Assembly (NCBI GenBank): GCA_963674745.2
Contig: CAXXDV010000003.1
Coordinates: 2,272,001-2,336,000, forward strand
Source of the DNA: Desulfosudaceae bacterium
Lineage (GTDB): Bacteria > Desulfobacterota > Desulfobacteria > Desulfobacterales > Desulfosudaceae
Length of the DNA: 64,000 nt
Direction of reading: 5' to 3'
The position numbers and the translations under genes were made by a program. A model generated the notes under the pieces. That model did not search any database. It saw only the letters and a list, made by a program, of their open reading frames with translations, and was not told where the DNA came from. This document shows positions 456-64,000 of the stretch, piece after piece; within the stretch, counting starts at the first letter, position 1, and each line of letters starts with the position of its first letter.

Positions 456-3047
456 CTATGCCTGGACAACGATGTTGACCAGCTTCTCGGGCACCACAAT
501 CACCTTTCTGACAGCCTTATCCCCGATGAATTTCTGGACCGGCTCACAGGCCAGGGCCAACTTTTCAAGCGTCTGTTTGTCGGTATCCGGAGCGGCCATA
601 AATTTCCCCCGCAGTTTGCCGTTGACCTGGACCACGATCAACTTTTCGTCCAGGGCCAGGGCGGCTTCCTGATGTTCCGGCCAGGGAGAGCGGAGAATAC
701 TCTCCTGGTTACCGAAAAAGGCCCATATCTCCTCGGCAAAATGAGGTGTAATGGGTGAAAGCAGCATGGCCAGGGTCTGGATTACCAATTTCATTACCTG
801 ACGGGTTTCGGGTATGCCGTCATCCTCGATACCGTAGGCTTCGTTCACCAGCTCCATCACAGCACTGATGGCGGTATTGAAATGGAACCGCTGGTCAAAC
901 TCCACCGACACTTTTTTGATGGTCTGATGCATCTTGCGGTAAAGGCTATGCAGCCGGGGTGACAGGTCCTCTTTTTCCCCTTTAAAAACGTCCGCGGATT
1001 TGATCGTTTCCATCCAGATGGACGAAAGCCGCCAGACCCGGTTCATGAAGCGATAGGCACCCTCCACCCCCTGGTCGCTCCACTGCAGCGCCTCTTCAGG
1101 AGGAGAAACAAACAGGCAGAACAGCCGGGTAACATCAGCCCCGTACCGGTCCAGCAGAAAATTCGGATCCACCACGTTTTTCTTGGACTTGGACATTTTC
1201 TCCACCCGCCCGAAAACCACCGGCTGACCGCAGTGAGCGCACACACTTTGTTCGTCTTCACCGGTCGCTTCTTCGGGGTAAAGAAAACCATGTTCCGGAC
1301 AGGAGGCCGTTTCCTTGCACACCATTCCCTGCGTCAGCAGATGGGTAAACGGCTCTTTGAAATCAACCAGCCCCAGCGCATTCAGCACGCGTGTAAAATA
1401 CCTGGAATACAACAAATGCAGTACCGCGTGTTCGACCCCGCCGATATACTGATCCGCGGGCATCCAGTAGTCCACGGCATCTTTCTCAAACATGGCCTCC
1501 GTGCAGTCCGGACTGCAATACCGCAGGTAATACCAGGAGGAATCGACAAAAGTGTCCATGGTATCGGTTTCCCGCCGGGCCTGGCCGCCGCACCCGGGGC
1601 AGGTCGTCCGGACAAAGCTGTCCAGCACCGGCAGCGGTGATTTACCGCCTTCCAGCAGGTCGGCGTCTTCAGGCAGCACCACCGGCAAATCCTTGTCCGG
1701 GACCGGAACAATACCGCATGTTGGGCAATGGATCATGGGAATCGGGGCGCCCCAGTAACGCTGCCGGGAAATCCCCCAGTCACGCAACCGGTAACTGACC
1801 GTCTTTTTGCCGATGCCCTTTTCTTCCAGGCGGGCGGCAATGTCATCCAGGGCCTGCCGGTTGTCTAAACCATCGAATTCACCTGAATTGACCAGCCGGC
1901 CCGGTCCGGTATAGGCCTCGGTCATTTCCCCGGCCGTCAATGATTCGTCTTCGGGATTAATGACCACGATCACGTCCAGCCCGTATTTTTTGGCAAATTC
2001 GAAATCGCGCTGGTCATGAGCCGGCACACTCATAACCGCACCGGTACCGTACTCCATCAGGGCAAAATTGGCCGTGTAGACCGGCATGCGCCGGCCGGTG
2101 AAAGGGTTGAGACACCAGGCGCCGGTAAAGACGCCTTCTTTCTCGTACGACTCTATGGTCTTGCTGGTGCGATCGGTGGCCGCCATTTTCTCTACGAACA
2201 GGCGCACCGCCTCTTCCTGATCGGTCCCGGCGGCCAGTTGCTCCACCATGGGATGTTCCGGGGCCAGGCACATAAAGGTCGCCCCGAAAACCGTATCCTG
2301 GCGGGTCGTAAAAACAGGCAGAACCTCATCGCTGCCCTCTACGGGAAAACGAATTTCCGCGCCCATGCTTTTACCGATCCAGTTTTTCTGCATGGTCAAC
2401 ACTTTTTCGGGCCAGCCGGGCATTCGCTCACAATAGGTCAGCAGGTCTTCGGCAAAGTCTGTTATCCTGAAAAACCACTGGGGCAATTTCTTCTGCTGTA
2501 CCGGTTTGCCGCAACGCCAGCAGGCACCGGCCTCCACCTGCTCATTGGCCAGCACGGTGGCACATTTATCGCACCAGTTAACATAGGATTCCTTGCGATA
2601 GACCATGCCCTTTTCATACATCCTGACAAACAGCCACTGCTCCCAGCGGTAGTATTCAGGATCGCAGGTGGCGATTTCCCGGCGCCAGTCATAGCTGAGC
2701 CCCATGCGCTTGAGCTGGGAACGCATGTAGTCGATGTTCTCCCGGGTCCACTGTGACGGATGGGTATTATTGGCAATGGCCGCGTTTTCCGCGGGCATGC
2801 CGAAAGCATCCCAGCCCATGGGATGAAGCACGTTGTATCCCCGCATTCTTTTAAAGCGGGCGATTACATCGCCGATGGTATAGTTACGGACATGCCCCAT
2901 ATGTATTTTGCCGGAAGGATAGGGGAACATTTCAAAAAGATAATACTTTTTACGGCCCTGTTCCTCGGCAACGGAAAAAAGACCTTTTTCCTCCCAGAAA
3001 GACTGCCACTTTTCTTCAATCGCCTTGAAGGGATATTTGTCCTCCAT
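456..3047 (-). CDS. leuS: Leucine--tRNA ligase
   Basis: [13 protein letters not shown] (HIGH) and KMSKS motifs, 863 aa. Confidence 0.98.
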
Positions 3048-3127
3048 TTATGTACTGCCCTCCACATTCAACTCAATCATTATTAAGGGTTCAAGGATTC
3101 AAGAGAACATCGCTTTTCATCAACGAC

Positions 3128-4585
3128 TCAACTTTTATCCCCATGTTCCTCTTTTACGGCATTGATGATCCCGGTCGTACTGACCCCTTCCTTGAGCGGC
3201 ACCAGGCAGACTTTTCCGCCATACTGTTCCACCTCGTCCCGACCGACCACCGTCTCCAGGCTGTAATCGCCGCCCTTGACCAGGACATCGGGTTTAAACG
3301 CCTCGATCAACGCCAGCGGCGTATCCTCGGAAAAAATCACCACCATATCCACGCAACCGATGGCCGTCAACAATGCGGCGCGTTCCTTTTCAGGAAGTAC
3401 CGGGCGGGACACGCCCTTCAGTTGCCTTACCGAATCATCGGAATTGATGCCGACGATCAGGCGTTCTCCCTGGGCAGCCGCGGCATGAAGCAACCTGACG
3501 TGTCCGGTATGCAGCAAGTCAAAGCAACCGTTGGTAAACACAACCCGCTTGCCTTCCCGGCGCCAGAGGGTGACCATCTTTTCCGCGTCATCCCGGGAGA
3601 ATATCTTCCCGTCCGAGGCCCGGCCCCTCCCCCGGATGGCCGCCTCAAGCTCGACAATGGTCACCGGGCTGGTACCCACTTTCTGGACCACCACACCGGC
3701 CGCGCAGTTGGCCAGAACGGCCGCCTCGCTGATAGGCATACCACAGCCGAAAGCCGCGGCCACAACGCTGACCACCGTATCTCCGGCGCCTGACACATCA
3801 AACACATCCCTGGCTTCGGTGGGAATATGCAGGGGTTCGGAGTCCCGGCCAAAAAGCGACATCCCCCGGTCGCCCCTGGTAACCAGCAGGTTGTCGAGAT
3901 GATACTGTTTGATGACCGCCTCAGCCTGTGCCGAAAAACGGTTTTCGTCATCCACCGATGCGGCACTGATAGCCGTGAATTCGGCGGCATTGGGGGTAAT
4001 ACAGGTGGCCCGTGCATACCGTGACCAGTCTTTTCCCTTGGGATCTACAAAAACGGGCACACCGGCGGCCGTGCAACGCGAGATAAAAACTTCGGCCAGG
4101 CCGTCTGTTAACAGTCCCTTGCCGTAATCCGAGAGAATGACCACATCCACCCGTGAAACAAGACGCTCAAAATCGGCCAGCAACCGGTCACTGCCCGGCG
4201 CTTCCGCCGGCCACCGACGTTCTTCATCAAGACGGACCAGTTGCTGCTTTTGTCCCAGGACACGGGTTTTGGTCGTCGTGATATGCGCCCCGTCCACCAT
4301 CAGGTGCTCATCAATATTGTTTTCCGCCAGCATCCGGACAACATGCTCACCGGCTGAATCATCTCCCCGCACACCGATCAGAGAAACACGGCATCCCAGG
4401 CCGGCCAGGTTTAAAGCCACGTTGCCCGCCCCGCCCAGAAGGTATGTCTTCTTTTTTACATTAACCACCGGCACCGGTGCTTCCGGTGAAATCCGGCCGA
4501 CTTCACCCCAGTAATAAACATCCAGCATGACATCACCGGCCACCAGAACCCGACAGGATGAAAAATCCGGACAATAAACCGTCAT
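3128..4585 (-). CDS. hldE: Bifunctional heptose-7-phosphate kinase / heptose-1-phosphate adenylyltransferase
   Basis: GDVMLD..RISPEAPVP, DVSGAGDTV kinase motifs; FTNGCFDLLHTGH nucleotidyltransferase motif. Confidence 0.95.
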   Translation of the reverse strand: MTVYCPDFSSCRVLVAGDVMLDVYYWGEVGRISPEAPVPVVNVKKKTYLLGGAGNVALNLAGLGCRVSLIGVRGDDSAGEHVVRMLAENNIDEHLMVDGAHITTTKTRVLGQKQQLVRLDEERRWPAEAPGSDRLLADFERLVSRVDVVILSDYGKGLLTDGLAEVFISRCTAAGVPVFVDPKGKDWSRYARATCITPNAAEFTAISAASVDDENRFSAQAEAVIKQYHLDNLLVTRGDRGMSLFGRDSEPLHIPTEARDVFDVSGAGDTVVSVVAAAFGCGMPISEAAVLANCAAGVVVQKVGTSPVTIVELEAAIRGRGRASDGKIFSRDDAEKMVTLWRREGKRVVFTNGCFDLLHTGHVRLLHAAAAQGERLIVGINSDDSVRQLKGVSRPVLPEKERAALLTAIGCVDMVVIFSEDTPLALIEAFKPDVLVKGGDYSLETVVGRDEVEQYGGKVCLVPLKEGVSTTGIINAVKEEHGDKS

Positions 4586-57515: not shown

Positions 57516-57854
57516 TTATCTTATTTCAAGTATTGTAGCGACTGCTTGGCAGATTTCGTCAAGTTCTTCGAGTGATAGTGACTCGATCTTCTTTTTCAGT
57601 CTGTGTTTTGCAACTGCTCGAATCTGATCCACCACGGCCACGGCAGCTCCCCCCTGACAATTAACCGGAACCGTGATTGGTGGATGTGATTTCGCAGCGG
57701 TGGAGAGAGGAACCACAACAACAGTCCGACGAAGACTGTTTATGGTATTGTGTGAAAGGACAACACAGGGACGAGTTTTTTTAATCTCGGAACCCTGCGT
57801 CGGGTCCAAACTCACCCACCAAATGTCACCCCGCGTGATAGTGGGTTCGGTCAT
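57516..57854 (-). CDS. PemK/MazF family toxin
   Basis: RGDIWWVSLDPTQGSEIKKTRPCVVLS, DQIRAV. Confidence 0.93.
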   Translation of the reverse strand: MTEPTITRGDIWWVSLDPTQGSEIKKTRPCVVLSHNTINSLRRTVVVVPLSTAAKSHPPITVPVNCQGGAAVAVVDQIRAVAKHRLKKKIESLSLEELDEICQAVATILEIR

Positions 57855-58069
57855 TCCTCGATTCCGTCCTCAAATGCTTGCCACTCGTCGATCTCTTGCT
57901 CTAAAGCTTTGTCACGATTGGCTGCCCGGCAAGCAGCTGCCAGCGAGCTGTCTCGATCCTTTAACTCCTGTTCCAGCAAACGCGTAACAAGGCGAGATCG
58001 CTGACGGGCAGGTACTGCCGCCTGGAATCGATGAGCCACTTCATCTGGTATGGATAATGTAATTCTCAT
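57851..58069 (-). CDS. Cognate antitoxin (RHH-type)
   Basis: MRITLSIPDEV N-terminus, acidic C-terminus, ATGA overlap with toxin. Confidence 0.8.
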   Translation of the reverse strand: MRITLSIPDEVAHRFQAAVPARQRSRLVTRLLEQELKDRDSSLAAACRAANRDKALEQEIDEWQAFEDGIEE

Positions 58070-58465: not shown

Positions 58466-59407
58466 TTATTTTGCCCCAGCCTGTTTAAGTAGTTCAACTA
58501 GTTCTTTATGCACACGGGTTTTTGATGCGAGCGATAAAGCCGTTTCACCGTCATTGTCTTTAGCATTAACCTCTGCCCCGCTTTCCAATAGCGCTTTTAC
58601 GACTTCAGTATGGCCGTTAATGGATGCATTAATTAATGCTGTTGCGCCTCTCTGGTTTTTGGCGTTTATCTCTGCCCCGTTTGCCAACAACGTTTTTATG
58701 ACTTCAACGTTTTCATTAATGGATGCATAGTGCAAAGCTGTCGAGTCTTTATCGTTTTTGGCGTTGACCTTCGCGCCACTTTCCAACAGCGCTTTTACGA
58801 CTTCAATATGGCCAAACCGGGAGGCTAACCTCAAAGCTGTCCAGCCTTCATTGCTTTCGGCGTTTACCTCTGCCCCTCCTGCCAGTAACGTCTTCACGAC
58901 TTCAACATGGCCATCTTGGGATGCCTTCTGCAAAGCTGTAATGCCTTCATTGTTTTTGGCGTTTACGTCTGCCCCGCTTACTAACAACGCTTTTACGACT
59001 TCAATGTGGCCTTCCTGAGATGCTATCTGCAAAGCTGTAAAGTCTTCATTATCTTTAGCATTGACAGTTGCTCCGTTTGCCAGAAGAGTTTTTACAACTT
59101 CAGCATGGCCACACTTGGATGCATTCATCAAAGCCGTTGCGCCTTTTTGGTTTTTGGCGTTGACTTCTGCCCCATTTGCCAACAGCGATTTTATGACTTC
59201 AATGTTTCCACCAATGGATGCATAGTGCAAAGCTGTCGATCCTATATCGTTTTTGGCGTTGACTTCTGATCCACTTTCAAGCAAGGATTTTACGGCCTGA
59301 ATATCACCTTTCTCGGCTACGGTGAATATATCGACATCATCCCTGGTACATGCCGGAATAGTTAATGGCAAGACAAAGAAAACTAGAAGAACAACTAAAT
59401 ATCTCAT
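58466..59407 (-). CDS. Ankyrin-repeat (lipo)protein, gene cassette
   Basis: Eight TAL..AS..G..EVVK.LL..GA.VNA repeats; signal peptide with IPAC lipobox. Confidence 0.93.
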   Translation of the reverse strand: MRYLVVLLVFFVLPLTIPACTRDDVDIFTVAEKGDIQAVKSLLESGSEVNAKNDIGSTALHYASIGGNIEVIKSLLANGAEVNAKNQKGATALMNASKCGHAEVVKTLLANGATVNAKDNEDFTALQIASQEGHIEVVKALLVSGADVNAKNNEGITALQKASQDGHVEVVKTLLAGGAEVNAESNEGWTALRLASRFGHIEVVKALLESGAKVNAKNDKDSTALHYASINENVEVIKTLLANGAEINAKNQRGATALINASINGHTEVVKALLESGAEVNAKDNDGETALSLASKTRVHKELVELLKQAGAK

Positions 59408-60044: not shown

Positions 60045-60172
60045 TGCTAACGTCTTCAGCCAAAGGGCGCCAGGGCTTACTCTGACTGACTTAAAGGTGG
60101 TTAAAGTTTAATTCAGCGCGGTTGTTCAAAACCCGAGTGCCCTGGCGATCCTATTGCGCTGAATGGTTGAAC
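60045..60172 (-). other. attC site, family B (128 bp)
   Basis: AAC-5-AGC(G)CAAT...TTTGGCT-6-GTTAGCA; inner stem CGCCAGGGC/GCCCTGGCG. Confidence 0.85.
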
Positions 60173-60259
60173 GAAGCCGCTACGCGGCGGATTAATAAAA
60201 AACAAGGTATACTCCAATACGTGCTCAATTACGGGCACCCCCAATGAAAGGAGTATACC

Positions 60260-61164
60260 ATGAACGATTCGGAAGTAAAACGTTTCAACCGGCTTTATGA
60301 GAGGCACCTGGAGTTGCTCAAGCTTCAGGGTATGAGTCCGAGGACCATTGATCTCTATGCCCGTTCAGTCCGCCGCATTCGTAACCATTTTGATTGTTGT
60401 CCCGACCATTTGCGTCCGGAACAATTGGAAGGTTATTTCTCTCAGCTGGTGGATAGCCATTCCTGGAGCACGGTCAGGGTTGACCGTAACGGCTTGCAGT
60501 TCTTCTGGCGGTATGTGCTCGGAAAGGACTGGGAATGGATCAAGATCGTCAAACCGCCGAAAGTCAAAACCATACCGGACATTCTTACCGTTTCCGAAGT
60601 TGAACGGATCATCGGCAAAACCAAGAAATTGCGTTACCGGGTATTTCTGCTGACAACCTATTCCATGGGATTGCGTCTGGAAGAGACGTTGTCCCTCCAG
60701 ATCGGAGACATTGATGCCGAACGCAAAAAGGTTCATATTCGTCGGGGCAAAGGCCATAAAGATCGAATGCTGCCGTTGCCGGACCTGACGTTGCTGGGCC
60801 TGCGGGAGCTTTGGTGTAAGCATCGTCATCCTAATTTGTTATTTCCCAATTGCAAGGGGTCTTTAGAGACCATCCGGGCGGCCACCAACTTTATGGATAA
60901 AGGCGGCTGCCAGAGGGCCATGAAAGTCGTCGTCGCCGAATGCGGCATTAAAAAAAAGTATCCATCCACTCCTTGCGACACAGTTTTGCCACCCACCTGC
61001 TTGAACGCGGCTTAAGCCTCCGACACATCCAGGCCTTGCTTGGCCATGCCAGTCCCTCCACAACAGCACGTTATACGCATCTAAGCGATATAACGGAGCA
61101 GGACAGCCTGACTGTCTTAAATGAGTTGATAAATACAATCCATGTTGATTTTAGAAAGGTATGA
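60260..61164 (+). CDS. Tyrosine recombinase, split by -1 frameshift at ~60950-60958
   Basis: SAM-like N-domain, [10 protein letters not shown] in frame 0; [18 protein letters not shown] in the -1 frame. Confidence 0.88.
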
Positions 61165-62216
61165 TTATGGAACTGGCATCAATTATTGATCAGTACGCTG
61201 ACAGGTTTATGGAAAAGCACGGCCAAAAAGCCTTGCCGGGGCATCTTAAAGCCTTGCGTGCCATACGCAGGTGCCGCACTCCTGCCTCCGGAGAATTTTA
61301 CGTTCAGTGCCCCGGCTGCCAACATGGACAATGGAAACCAATGTCCTGCGGGCACCGGAGCTGCCCCAAATGCCAGAATCATGAGGCCAGTCAGTGGATC
61401 GACCGGCAGCAGGAGAAACTGCTTCCGGTGCTTTACTTTATGGCGACGTTTACGCTGCCGTTTGAACTCCGTCCGCTGGCCTGGAACAATCAGCGGGATG
61501 TATATTCAATCTTCTTTTCCTGTGTGTCCGAAACACTCAAGGATTTTGGCTTAAACCCGAAGCAAATGGGCGCAGAAATCGGTTTGACCATGGTTCTGCA
61601 TACGAACACCCGAAGTCTGGATTATCATCCTCATATCCATGTGGTGGTGCCCGGCGGCGGGATTGATAAGCGCCGGCGACAATGGAAAAAGAAAAAAGGA
61701 AAATATCTGTTTAATGAGTTTAACCTGGCCACGGTCTTTCGTGCCCGTTTTCTGGCCGCTTTAAGAAAAGCCGGCCTTTATGTGCCTAAAAACACACCTG
61801 CGGAATGGGTCGTGGATTGTGAAAAGGTCGGTAACGGGCTCCCGGTCATAAAGTACCTGTCCCGGTACTTATACCGGGGTGTAATCAGTGAAAAGAATAT
61901 TGTGGCCAATGAAAATGGCCGGGTCACCTTCAGGTACACTGAAAGCGGCACCGGCCATACCCGTTATCGTACGCTTGACGGAGAAGATTTTCTCCAGCTC
62001 ATTCTGCAGCATGTCCTGCCCAAGGGCTTCCGCAGGGTGCGCGATTACGGGTTTCTTCATGGCAACGCCAAAAAGACGCTGCAACTGGTGCAATTGATCC
62101 TGCATGTCCGGCTTGGAATAAAAACCCAACGCCCAAGGCCTGCTGTAAAGTGCCCCCGTTGCCACATCCCGATGGTCATCAAAGGGTTCCGTTACGCGGC
62201 CTGGAAGCCCGGATAA
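61161..62216 (+). CDS. IS91-family Y2 (HUH) transposase
   Basis: N-terminal Zn-binding C..C/SC..RSCPKC, HPHIH HUH motif, YLSRY, C-terminal CPRC. Confidence 0.93.
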
Positions 62217-62409
62217 AACGCTGCCGCGGCTATGACCCGGCGCAAAAAAGAACAGGAGGCAATCACACCCATGAACAAAATTGTCTTTTTAAAACCTGCC
62301 TTCAGGTTAAGGGATCCCTGCGTCCTGCAAAAAAAGTACTATCCAGGTTCACGCCGTTTGCCCACTACCCCAAATTAAATATTTTCTTTATTATAAGACC
62401 GACGGGCTT

Positions 62410-62472
62410 GTTCAACCCCGGATAAGATCGTGGCTCGTTGTCACTCACACGATCTATCCTTGTTCGTTAGAA
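62410..62472 (+). other. attC-like terminal hairpin of the element
   Basis: GTTCAAC-CCC-GGATA(A)GATCGTG...CACGATCTATCC-TTGTTC-GTTAGAA; left spacer shorter than canonical. Confidence 0.65.
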
Positions 62473-62475
62473 AAA

Positions 62476-62922
62476 TTAATTTTTCGGACATTCTCCATAA
62501 AAAGCCATTTCGGGATAATTTGATCTCAAAATATTATAGATAATATTACATTCTTCTGAGAAATGTTTTTCGGGATCAACATTAAAGCAAGCGCTCTGAC
62601 TAAATTGGATAAATATTTCTTTTGACTCTTCTTCGCAAACACGTACTATTGATAATCTCGAAAAAGATTCTTTTTGTGCCTCAAACAATACAGGATATGT
62701 CCCCCCATATCCATCAGATATTGTATTATTCCCATCGTTTTGATTATCTTCAGATATGATGTATTTCTCCCGCTCAAGATCCTTGCTGAACGATGCCATA
62801 AATTCGGCGAGCTGATCTGCTGAGAAGATTTTATGGCCCGCAACATGAAAACTATTCATCTGAACGACACACGAACAACCAGCACAATATAATATTGTCA
62901 TTGTAAGTATGAATGGTCTCAT
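62476..62922 (-). CDS. Hypothetical lipoprotein, gene cassette
   Basis: AT-rich ORF, CAGC lipobox, flanked by complementary GTTAGAAAA / TTTTCTAAC. Confidence 0.75.
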   Translation of the reverse strand: MRPFILTMTILYCAGCSCVVQMNSFHVAGHKIFSADQLAEFMASFSKDLEREKYIISEDNQNDGNNTISDGYGGTYPVLFEAQKESFSRLSIVRVCEEESKEIFIQFSQSACFNVDPEKHFSEECNIIYNILRSNYPEMAFYGECPKN

Positions 62923-62928
62923 TGTGTT

Positions 62929-63052
62929 TTCTAACGTCTGCCACCACCAGCAAGCAGGGTTTGCAGACTTCGCTAAAGTGAGTTTAACTCTAAATTACGC
63001 CAAAACCAAGGCAGCCCGCCCCTGCGAGTCTGTGTGAGTGGCGTTGATAATC
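62929..63052 (-). other. attC site, family A copy 3, interrupted at R'' by IS110
   Basis: Aligns end to end with 58339-58463 and 59420-59543 until GATA. Confidence 0.85.
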
Positions 63053-63134
63053 ATTGAGCCTCCCCCTTCAAACAGCATACCATTATGCTGAGAAATTGGA
63101 GTTGGCAAAAACCAAAAACAAAGGAGGAAGCCCA

Positions 63135-64000
63135 ATGAAATTCTATACCAAACAGCACAAGTATTACTGCGGTATCGACCTTCACGCCAGATCACTGTAT
63201 GTCTGTATTCTGGACAGTGACGGTCAGGTTGTTTATCACAAAAAAATCAAATCAAAACCGGATGCACTCGAACGTGCGATCTCCCCCTTCCTGGACGATC
63301 TTGTCATCGCCGTGGAATGTATGTTCTCCTGGTATTGGGTAGCAGATTTCTGCGAAAACCGCAATATTCCGTTTATCCTCGGACATGCCCTTTACATGAA
63401 AGCCATTCATGGCGGCAAGGCCAAAAACGACAGGATCGACTCATACAAAATTGCCAGCCTGATCAGGGGCGGCAATTTCCCGGTGGCCTTTGTATACCCC
63501 GCCGCGATGCGGGCCACCCGGGACCTGCTGCGAAGAAGAATGCATCTGACGCGCAAACGGGGCGAACTCATCGCGCATATCCAAAACACCAACACCCAGT
63601 ACAACCTGCCGGAGATCGGAAAAAACTTAAAGTACAAAGCCAATCGCAAGCTGGTCGAAGATCGATTTGACGATCCCAGCGCCCAGAAAAGCATTGATCT
63701 GGATGTCCAGCTGATCGGCTTTTATGACCAGCAGCTTTCCAGCGTTGAATATCATATCCTCAAACATGCCAAGGGCCACGATTACCACAGCTATATGCTG
63801 TTGAAATCCGTTCCGGGCATCGGCGACATCATCAGCCTGGTCATCTTGTATGAAATCTACGACATCAGCCGGTTCCCGACCGTCCAGGACTTTGCCTCGT
63901 ATGCCCGGCTGGTCAAATGCAGGGCAGAGTCAGCCGGAAAAATCTACGGCACCTCCGGCGCCAAAATCGGCAACGCCCATTTAAAATGGGCCTTTTCTGA
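63135..64000 (+). CDS. IS110-family transposase (3' end outside window)
   Basis: Manual translation MKFYTKQHKYYCGIDLH..AVEC..KNDRID (DEDD), VPGIG, ESAGK..GNAHLKWAF; RBS AGGAGG. Confidence 0.93.
   Translation, partial: MKFYTKQHKYYCGIDLHARSLYVCILDSDGQVVYHKKIKSKPDALERAISPFLDDLVIAVECMFSWYWVADFCENRNIPFILGHALYMKAIHGGKAKNDRIDSYKIASLIRGGNFPVAFVYPAAMRATRDLLRRRMHLTRKRGELIAHIQNTNTQYNLPEIGKNLKYKANRKLVEDRFDDPSAQKSIDLDVQLIGFYDQQLSSVEYHILKHAKGHDYHSYMLLKSVPGIGDIISLVILYEIYDISRFPTVQDFASYARLVKCRAESAGKIYGTSGAKIGNAHLKWAFS

Follow-up and report, generated by a model that had tools for sequence, protein, structure and literature searches.

The 64,000-nucleotide stretch of a Desulfosudaceae bacterium analysed here (contig CAXXDV010000003.1, positions 2,272,001–2,336,000; hereafter the window) carries a 2300-bp mobile element at 60167–62466, which interrupts an integron attC site and encodes a tyrosine recombinase and a Y2 HUH transposase. 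We give an even chance to the element being an autonomous insertion sequence (IS) of the IS91 family, in the subgroup with an upstream recombinase gene, which mimics a gene cassette and homes to attC. The division of labour in which the recombinase would make the joint and the HUH enzyme would supply the single strand is an evenly balanced proposal, drawn from the sequences.

Copies, features and insertion point

Four full copies of the element are present in the host genome (100, 97, 97 and 96% identity), each spanning the query bases 1–2300, and the similarity among them ends exactly at 60167 and 62466. The left flank of each copy is an attC-like palindrome body ending in G, and the right flank is TTA(G/T) followed by the 3' end of an opposite-strand gene. 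When the flanks were joined by script, an attC was obtained, and it aligns across the junction with uninterrupted paralogous attC sites of the same genome. The restoration of an attC by deletion of the element, proposed in a preliminary description of this DNA, was thus reproduced. The four copies occupy different attC sites and, in all cases, the same bond, G|TT of the R'' complement, inverted with respect to the cassettes; on the top strand, the insertion point is TTCTAA|C. IntI cuts at R', and the bond occupied by the element at R'' is its mirror image. At least 116 uninterrupted attC sites were listed in the host genome. With about 120 sites available in 5.5 Mb, the use of a single bond and a single orientation by all four insertions is not due to chance. 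Besides the full copies, the genome gave short matches of 80 and 35 bases, which are located within two intI genes. The features discussed below are as follows.

60045–60166, minus strand: interrupted attC body of the cassette holding the open reading frame (ORF) 62476–62922, aligned with an uninterrupted paralogous attC of the same genome
60045–60051, minus strand: R' (GTTAGCA) of the interrupted attC, the stem reaching up to the G of G|TT
60167–62466, plus strand: whole element, 2300 bp, from four copies and their junctions; the boundary is ambiguous inside the common GTT
60167–60172, plus strand: left terminus TTGAAC, which with the last G of the element gives GTTGAAC (R'-like), complementary to 62410–62416
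60176–60188, plus strand: small subterminal hairpin GCCGC-TAC-GCGGC, terIS-like, read directly and kept in relatives
60260–60958, plus strand: frame 0 part of the recombinase, with the N-terminal SAM-like domain and the start of the catalytic domain (PF13495, PF00589)
60952–60958, plus strand: slippery heptamer A_AAA_AAG, candidate −1 shift site, with the −1 arrangement in 57 of 62 relatives
60958–61164, plus strand: −1 frame part of the recombinase with GH...ARY and the catalytic H-x-x-R, H and Y (PF00589 positions 132–169)
61161–62216, plus strand: IS91-family Y2 HUH transposase with an N-terminal zinc-binding domain (PF04986, PF14319, NF033538)
62410–62416, plus strand: GTTCAAC, R''-like box of the element's own attC-like site, read directly and kept in relatives
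62420–62459, plus strand: terminal hairpin with a 12-bp stem, one bulged A and a 15-nt loop, with covariation in relatives
62460–62466, plus strand: spacer TTGTTC (62460–62465) and terminal G (62466), read directly and from the junctions
62467–62475, minus strand: rest of the host R'' (TTTTCTAA), abutting the stop of the cassette ORF, read directly and from the paralog alignment
62476–62922, minus strand: cassette ORF of 148 residues without a Pfam match, separated from its own attC by the insertion (ORF list, domain scan)
C3:2348261–2349205, C1:2117407–2118342 and C3:27977–28915: host intI genes on contigs C3 and C1, assigned by the curated cut-off

The junctions read G60166|TT60167–8 GAAC on the left and G62466|TT62467–8 on the right. 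G62466 is followed by TTAGAAAAA and then by the stop codon (62476–62478) of the minus-strand ORF 62476–62922. In the terminal hairpin, GGATA(A)GATCGTG (62420–62432) pairs with CACGATCTATCC (62448–62459) with one extra A, and CTTGTTC is present on either side of the hairpin. The element has subterminal hairpins, and neither terminal inverted repeats nor a target duplication were found at it. By direct reading, the sequence features and the boundaries 60167–62466 given in the preliminary description were confirmed, and the boundaries are the same in the three other copies. The cassette-like architecture that it proposed is also supported.

Three integron integrase genes of the host score above the NCBIfam cut-off. 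One of them lies 12 kb past the end of the window, and its transcription is directed away from this array. This position and direction place the cassettes on the minus strand, so that R'' is the box interrupted and the element has the orientation opposite to that of the array. Two of the intI genes adjoin arrays containing a copy, and two copies lie in arrays without an intI detected nearby. The host genome is unusually rich in integrons and attC clusters. No solo ends or miniature derivatives of the element were found in the host genome. Carried flanking DNA, which the proposed shuffling of neighbouring cassettes might leave, was not seen in the four copies. In three of the four copies, the top strand of the host serves as lagging-strand template, a number too small for a conclusion.

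Several features of the surroundings were noted in passing. The attC sites of the host genome (at least 116, in few sequence families) are spread over about ten places on C1 and C3, several of them without a nearby intI. The next attC of the array (62923–63046) is interrupted by an IS110-family (DEDD) element at 63047–64000, which runs past the window end and resembles the IS1111-attC group. Its junctions, ...GAGTGGCGTTG|ATAATC... on the left and ...ATATGTG|TTAA on the right, lie at the same TTG| point of the R'' complement, and it occurs at two further places in the genome, one in an attC of the same family and one partial. This array holds two unrelated IS types at the same bond. Among the neighbouring minus-strand cassettes, inspection by eye suggested a MazF/PemK-type toxin-like and short antitoxin pair at 57516–58069, and a 313-residue ankyrin-repeat protein with a signal-like N-terminus at 58466–59407.

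Recombinase and transposase genes

The recombinase domain match falls in two frames, 60260–61015 and then 60973–61164 in the −1 frame. The frame is broken at 60952–60958, a point absent from the preliminary description, and it is the −1 frame that holds the catalytic H-x-x-R, H and Y. In all four copies, frame 0 reads ATT AAA AAA AAG TAT and continues past the shift site to a stop 19 codons on (61013–61015), and the −1 frame continues from G60958. The site was surveyed in relatives using the 62 loci with adjacent recombinase halves among the 80 genome loci described below. The −1 arrangement on a run of eight or nine A was found in 57 of the 62 (T-A8-G 43, T-A9-T 11, T-A9-G 4). Three loci are shifted by one base in the opposite direction, and two are in-frame fusions, reading I-K-K-K-V and I-Q-K-R-V across the site. 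The mean identity after the shift is 76.3%, against 70.2% before it. In an in-frame variant, L042:1951–2853, Cys replaces the catalytic Tyr, and this fused copy is therefore probably inactive.

From this pattern, the split recombinase appears not to be the result of decay. The full-length protein is predicted to be makeable only after a −1 shift at A_AAA_AAG, by ribosomal frameshifting or by transcriptional slippage adding one A, and both would give the identical protein. Phase variation of the A run at the DNA level was also considered and was rejected, because 57 of the 62 sampled copies are in one shifted state. The frameshift is likely to make annotators call the recombinase a pseudogene, and its conservation speaks against this. 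The TGA of the −1 frame overlaps the ATG of the transposase (ATGA), and in the surveyed loci the transposase match begins where the recombinase match ends; thus the transposase may be translationally coupled to the shifted frame. In dnaX and in elements of the IS3/IS911 type, −1 frameshifting takes place at A_AAA_AAG. The frame 0 heptamer of the element is identical to theirs, and likewise the upstream product is truncated and the fusion catalytic. Unlike in those cases, the site lies inside the catalytic domain of a tyrosine recombinase, and no conserved downstream structure was found.

The recombinase belongs to the Xer/IntI group. Its full-length relatives match best archaeal XerA, XerD and the integron-integrase subfamily, with 144–170 bits, far below the cut-offs of 220–330. 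Against TIGR02249 (IntI, cut-off 265), two full-length relatives score 144.5 and 154.4 bits and the N part in the window 86.1, whereas the true IntI of the host genome reach 415–429 bits. The element recombinases retain the catalytic R, K, H-x-x-R, H and Y. The transposase matches PF04986 (E 3.9e-48), PF14319 (E 1.5e-27) and NF033538 (387.9 bits, cut-off 125), and its residues H156, H158, H160, Y232, Y236 and Y238 are invariant in 21 sequences. Among the four copies, the variable sites (synonymous/non-synonymous) are 26/3 in the recombinase before the shift, 7/0 after the shift in the −1 frame, and 35/15 in the transposase. According to these counts, both genes are under purifying selection, and both appear intact in function. 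Where upstream DNA is present, both recombinase halves accompany the transposase in all but a few of the 80 loci. In three loci (L035 ~2950–3315, L041 ~2930–3315 and L071 ~430–833), an insert of about 370–400 bp directly follows the HSLRH codons of the recombinase gene. It is bordered by short palindromic words, and it may be a small mobile element targeting this gene.

Ends and target sites of relatives

Relatives were collected by the transposase. In the protein search, 7991 of the 8000 scored candidates were at E ≤ 1e-20, the best 120 being 72–99% identical. Scanning a single genome for each species yielded 439 related stretches, from which 80 loci with 62–77% transposase identity were kept, mainly from metagenome-assembled genomes of Desulfobacterota and Gammaproteobacteria. 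Of the 80 loci, 31 showed the left terminus G|TTGRACGAAGCCGC-NNN-GCGGC, 31 showed the right end GTYCAAC-N-stem-loop-stem-TTRTTCG|TT in complete form, and 18 showed both. A looser right-end pattern gave 56 loci, which together with two genomic copies and two plasmid relatives made 60 rows, 47 of them distinct. In these 47 sequences, the stem of the terminal hairpin is paired in 97.3% of the cells (25–51% in slid controls). Four of the 12 pairs changed on both sides, in 24 cells, and none of 500 shuffles was as high. The terminal hairpin belongs to the element, not to the neighbouring cassette; the earlier proposal that it travels with the element agrees with its retention in relatives with compensatory changes.

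In 23 of 24 complete elements, the box GTYCAAC before the stem is complementary to the seven bases formed by the final G of the element and its initial six. With looser matching, the same complementarity is seen in 41 of the 47 sequences (26 T/A, 15 C/G); three box/terminus pairs with odd end-to-end distances were kept in this count. The state of the R''-like box changed at least 9 to 14 times on the transposase tree. If joined in a circle, the two ends would form a short attC-like site with an R box (GTYCAAC/GTTGRAC), unpaired spacers of 3 and 6 nt and a single bulge in the stem, and judging from the relatives this is a conserved property of the family.

For the insertion sites, metagenome contigs were scanned with the exact left-end pattern, giving at least 123 stretches; 80 loci were fetched, and 66 of them have at least 150 flank bases, all different. 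Pooled with 24 genome-contig flanks and the four own copies, they make a set of 94. The left-flank base at −1 is G in 83 of 97 cases, and the right flank has T at +1 in 28 of 30 and at +2 in 30 of 30. In the pooled set, 80 flanks end in G. Two of the other fourteen have identical eight bases before the match, and some of the fourteen may have their true boundary at another position. Complementarity of the arms, anchored on AAC...G|TT, was found at p ≤ 0.01 in 25 of the 94 (about 1 expected) and at p ≤ 0.05 in 33, and the L''-spacer-R'' pattern A.CG-N2-3-T(T/G)G stands at the flank end in 23 (background 0.0011 per position). By the arm test at p ≤ 0.05 or by the motif, 46 of the 94 sites are attC-like. 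This arm test was a banded local one, which replaced a global arm alignment (15 of 94 at p ≤ 0.01, 26 at p ≤ 0.05). Classification of the sites by the folding energy of their flanks, with AAC-GTT pairs forced and with shuffles, was rejected as too noisy. The target logo is T..A(A/G)CG..TTG|TTA and includes the L'' box 6–9 nt off. As about half of the related sites are attC-like, attC is a preferred, not an obligate, target. Thus the inverted insertion at attC R'' that had been proposed holds in all four copies and in the attC(aadA1) case described next, and only in part for the related sites.

A relative with 43% transposase identity and a contiguous recombinase gene was found on an IncC plasmid of E. 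coli, in a class 1 integron, where it separates aadA1 from qacEdelta1. The junction sequences are ...GGCTTGAACGAATTG|TTGAAC... and ...CCTTATTTG|TTAGACATTATTTGCC, and the relative sits inverted within GTCTAA|C (R'') of attC(aadA1). Among 72,556 plasmids, its DNA appeared in full in 1 record and as one 250-bp fragment, and none of the E. coli genome records contained it. The fragment, on the Shewanella plasmid NC_008573.1 (42430–42679), is 94.8% identical to the right end of the plasmid relative, which hints at the origin of the E. coli plasmid element. More remote integrase-bearing IS91 relatives (35–36% identity) on Clostridium and Herpetosiphon plasmids are single copies with undefinable ends. 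At two metagenome loci, L156 and L170, one copy has its left end directly next to the hairpin of a second copy in reverse complement, exactly at the GTCCAA|C of that second copy; thus the element's own site serves as a target like attC. In a further metagenome locus, L152, two left ends face each other with 113 bp between them.

Mechanism, alternatives and significance

The following course of events may be proposed. The Y2 HUH transposase would peel off a single-stranded circle by rolling circle, from the hairpin (ori-like) end to the small-hairpin (ter-like) end, and the circle junction would fold. The Xer/IntI-like recombinase would then carry out a one-strand exchange at AA|C, either with the R'' of a resident attC or with a looser TTG|TT site, and replication would resolve the product, as it does when a cassette inserts or the CTX phage integrates. 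The frameshift, perhaps together with translational coupling of the transposase to the −1 frame, would hold the activity low. In CTX-phage integration at dif by XerCD, one strand is exchanged between a folded single-stranded hairpin and the chromosomal site, and replication resolves the product. The exchange proposed for the element is likewise of one strand and of Xer type, whereas the phage uses host enzymes and dif, and the element encodes its own recombinase and targets attC. Integration of this phage by XerCD is mentioned in PMC9345347. As a whole, a self-sufficient single-stranded 'cassette', with an HUH circle, a frameshift-throttled recombinase and an IntI-like exchange at the R'' or top-strand side of attC, is a possibility that we place somewhat short of even.

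The element is like the IS91 family (IS91, IS801, IS1294 and the ISCR relatives) in its Y2 HUH transposase with a zinc-binding N-terminus, in its subterminal hairpins without inverted repeats or target duplication, in the motif common to the ter end and the target, and in the small upstream gene overlapping tnpA. According to PMC13181058, IS91 moves as a bottom-strand single-stranded circle, cutting after the tetranucleotide of the ter end and target, and it targets GTTC/CTTG. In contrast, the element targets G|TT / AA|C of the attC R''. Beside its ori end, where the IS91 rule asks for GTTC/CTTG (or GTCC), the flank reads TTA/TTC (TAAC on the opposite strand), and GTTC/CTTG is found within the element ends only, not in the flank. 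Unlike in IS91, moreover, its ends jointly make an attC-like R box and stem, and its upstream gene is a complete tyrosine recombinase. ISfinder lists an IS91 subgroup with an upstream integrase gene. One such member, ISShvi3, which is named in PMC9229058, has the same two-gene layout; that source reports no IS interrupting attC and gives no target rule.

With integron cassettes and IntI, the element shares the crossover G|TT and a recombinase of the Xer/IntI group with a SAM-like N-domain, and its joined ends would fold into an imperfect palindrome that has an R box, spacers and one bulged base. Unlike a cassette, it enters R'' inversely and carries its own two enzymes, and unlike IntI, its recombinase is below the IntI cut-off and has no IntI-specific insertion. 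The element is thus a member of the IS91 family by its transposase, yet it departs from the target rule of that family, and by defining features it is neither an integron cassette nor an IntI. The IS1111-attC group (IS110 family) and the group IIC-attC introns are also attC specialists with a single orientation. They differ from the element in having, respectively, a DEDD transposase guided by RNA (PMC11187229) and a ribozyme with reverse transcriptase, both without cassette mimicry.

Several points weigh against a cassette mimic whose own recombinase makes the joint, and some of them also favour a doubtful alternative in which the Y2 transposase excises and inserts the element as in IS91. According to PMC13181058, IS91-family transposases alone excise and insert as single-stranded circles, modulated in IS91 by the small upstream ORF, and they recognise a tetranucleotide beside a subterminal hairpin. 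The AAC common to the ter end and target could be such a tetranucleotide: a YAAC would replace GTTC/CTTG, as TAAC of R'' in the target and as CAAC at the ter end (the element finishes ...GTTCAAC). The GTTGRAC box beside the ori hairpin would guide by pairing with the cleavage sites, as in IS200/IS605, and the recombinase would be an accessory, namely a regulator, a multimer-resolution enzyme or a fidelity factor like Orf121 of IS91. The anatomy agrees with this: the ori-like hairpin lies 3' of tnpA and the small ter-like one upstream, the target is not duplicated, and the ter end and target have one short motif in common. So does the target range, as the other half or so of the 94 sites is not recognisably attC and mostly has just the TTG|TT core. 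As to the recombinase, about 35 alignment columns of two host IntI, the IntI-specific insertion whose absence had been suspected earlier, are missing from four element recombinases. The IntI-specific domain reads extrahelical bases. No conserved stimulatory structure was found downstream of the slippery site (3 trivial pairs in 18 sequences). Of the 47 box/terminus pairs, the remaining 6 show an A-C mismatch and no other combination, and in six independent pairs for the R''/R' covariation the partner follows in about 3.4 and never goes the opposite way, which is not significant (median p 0.25). No circle-junction or empty-site contigs were seen among the assembled contigs of public runs, which weighs neither way; loose contig ends at 60168 in these runs are paralogous attC sites.

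Several points speak against the transposase acting alone. The cleavage bond would fall within a conserved 7-bp duplex beside a second box, which resembles the layout of a tyrosine-recombinase site, and a duplex at the crossover point would fit a tyrosine recombinase better than an HUH nuclease. The crossover also appears to be the G|TT of integron recombination. The tetranucleotide would have A at position 2, whereas the four tested IS91-family targets in PMC13181058 all have T, and the target logo takes in the L'' box 6–9 nt away. In addition, a complete catalytic recombinase under strong purifying selection, with a conserved recoding signal, suggests that the enzyme is maintained with a dedicated expression signal. 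It is improbable, on the other hand, that excision and integration are the work of the recombinase alone, the element being a cassette with its own integrase and the transposase just replicating or amplifying the circle or running a separate non-targeted transposition. Both junctions after insertion are hybrid attC-like sites that could be recombined back, and the non-attC insertions could represent a second pathway. Against this, the two genes stand together in the relatives examined, with the ATGA overlap, and no recombinase-only cassettes turned up, though no search was aimed at them. Movement by a host IntI, as an ordinary cassette via the attC-like end, is the least credible course and very improbable. 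The end does resemble a short attC, and the genome has three intI, two of them beside arrays holding a copy. However, IntI would place the element at R' or attI in cassette orientation, and none of the four copies, nor the plasmid relative, is so placed; two copies lie in arrays without an intI found nearby, and relatives also occur outside attC.

The element looks like a specialised, apparently undescribed integron parasite. In the literature searched (ISfinder and TnPedia lay outside it), the attC-like end, the R'' bond, the orientation rule and the frameshift were nowhere found described, and there was one passing mention. Two kinds of attC parasites are known, the IS1111-attC insertion sequences and the group IIC-attC introns. 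The element would be a third kind, and the only one that copies the cassette recombination site and brings a recombinase of the wider family of the integrase. With it, the integrase gene of one IS91 subgroup, so far unexplained, gains a concrete role that is open to testing. The element also places a recoding signal inside a tyrosine recombinase gene, and it offers a natural example of an HUH enzyme and a tyrosine recombinase that may act on a common single-stranded intermediate. As the insertion parts a cassette from its R'' box, it may alter which cassettes an integron can excise, and a conjugative plasmid already carries a distant relative within its class 1 integron. If the proposed mechanism is true, a second, IntI-independent recombination system acts on integron arrays, and it could link rolling-circle insertion sequences and integron cassettes evolutionarily.

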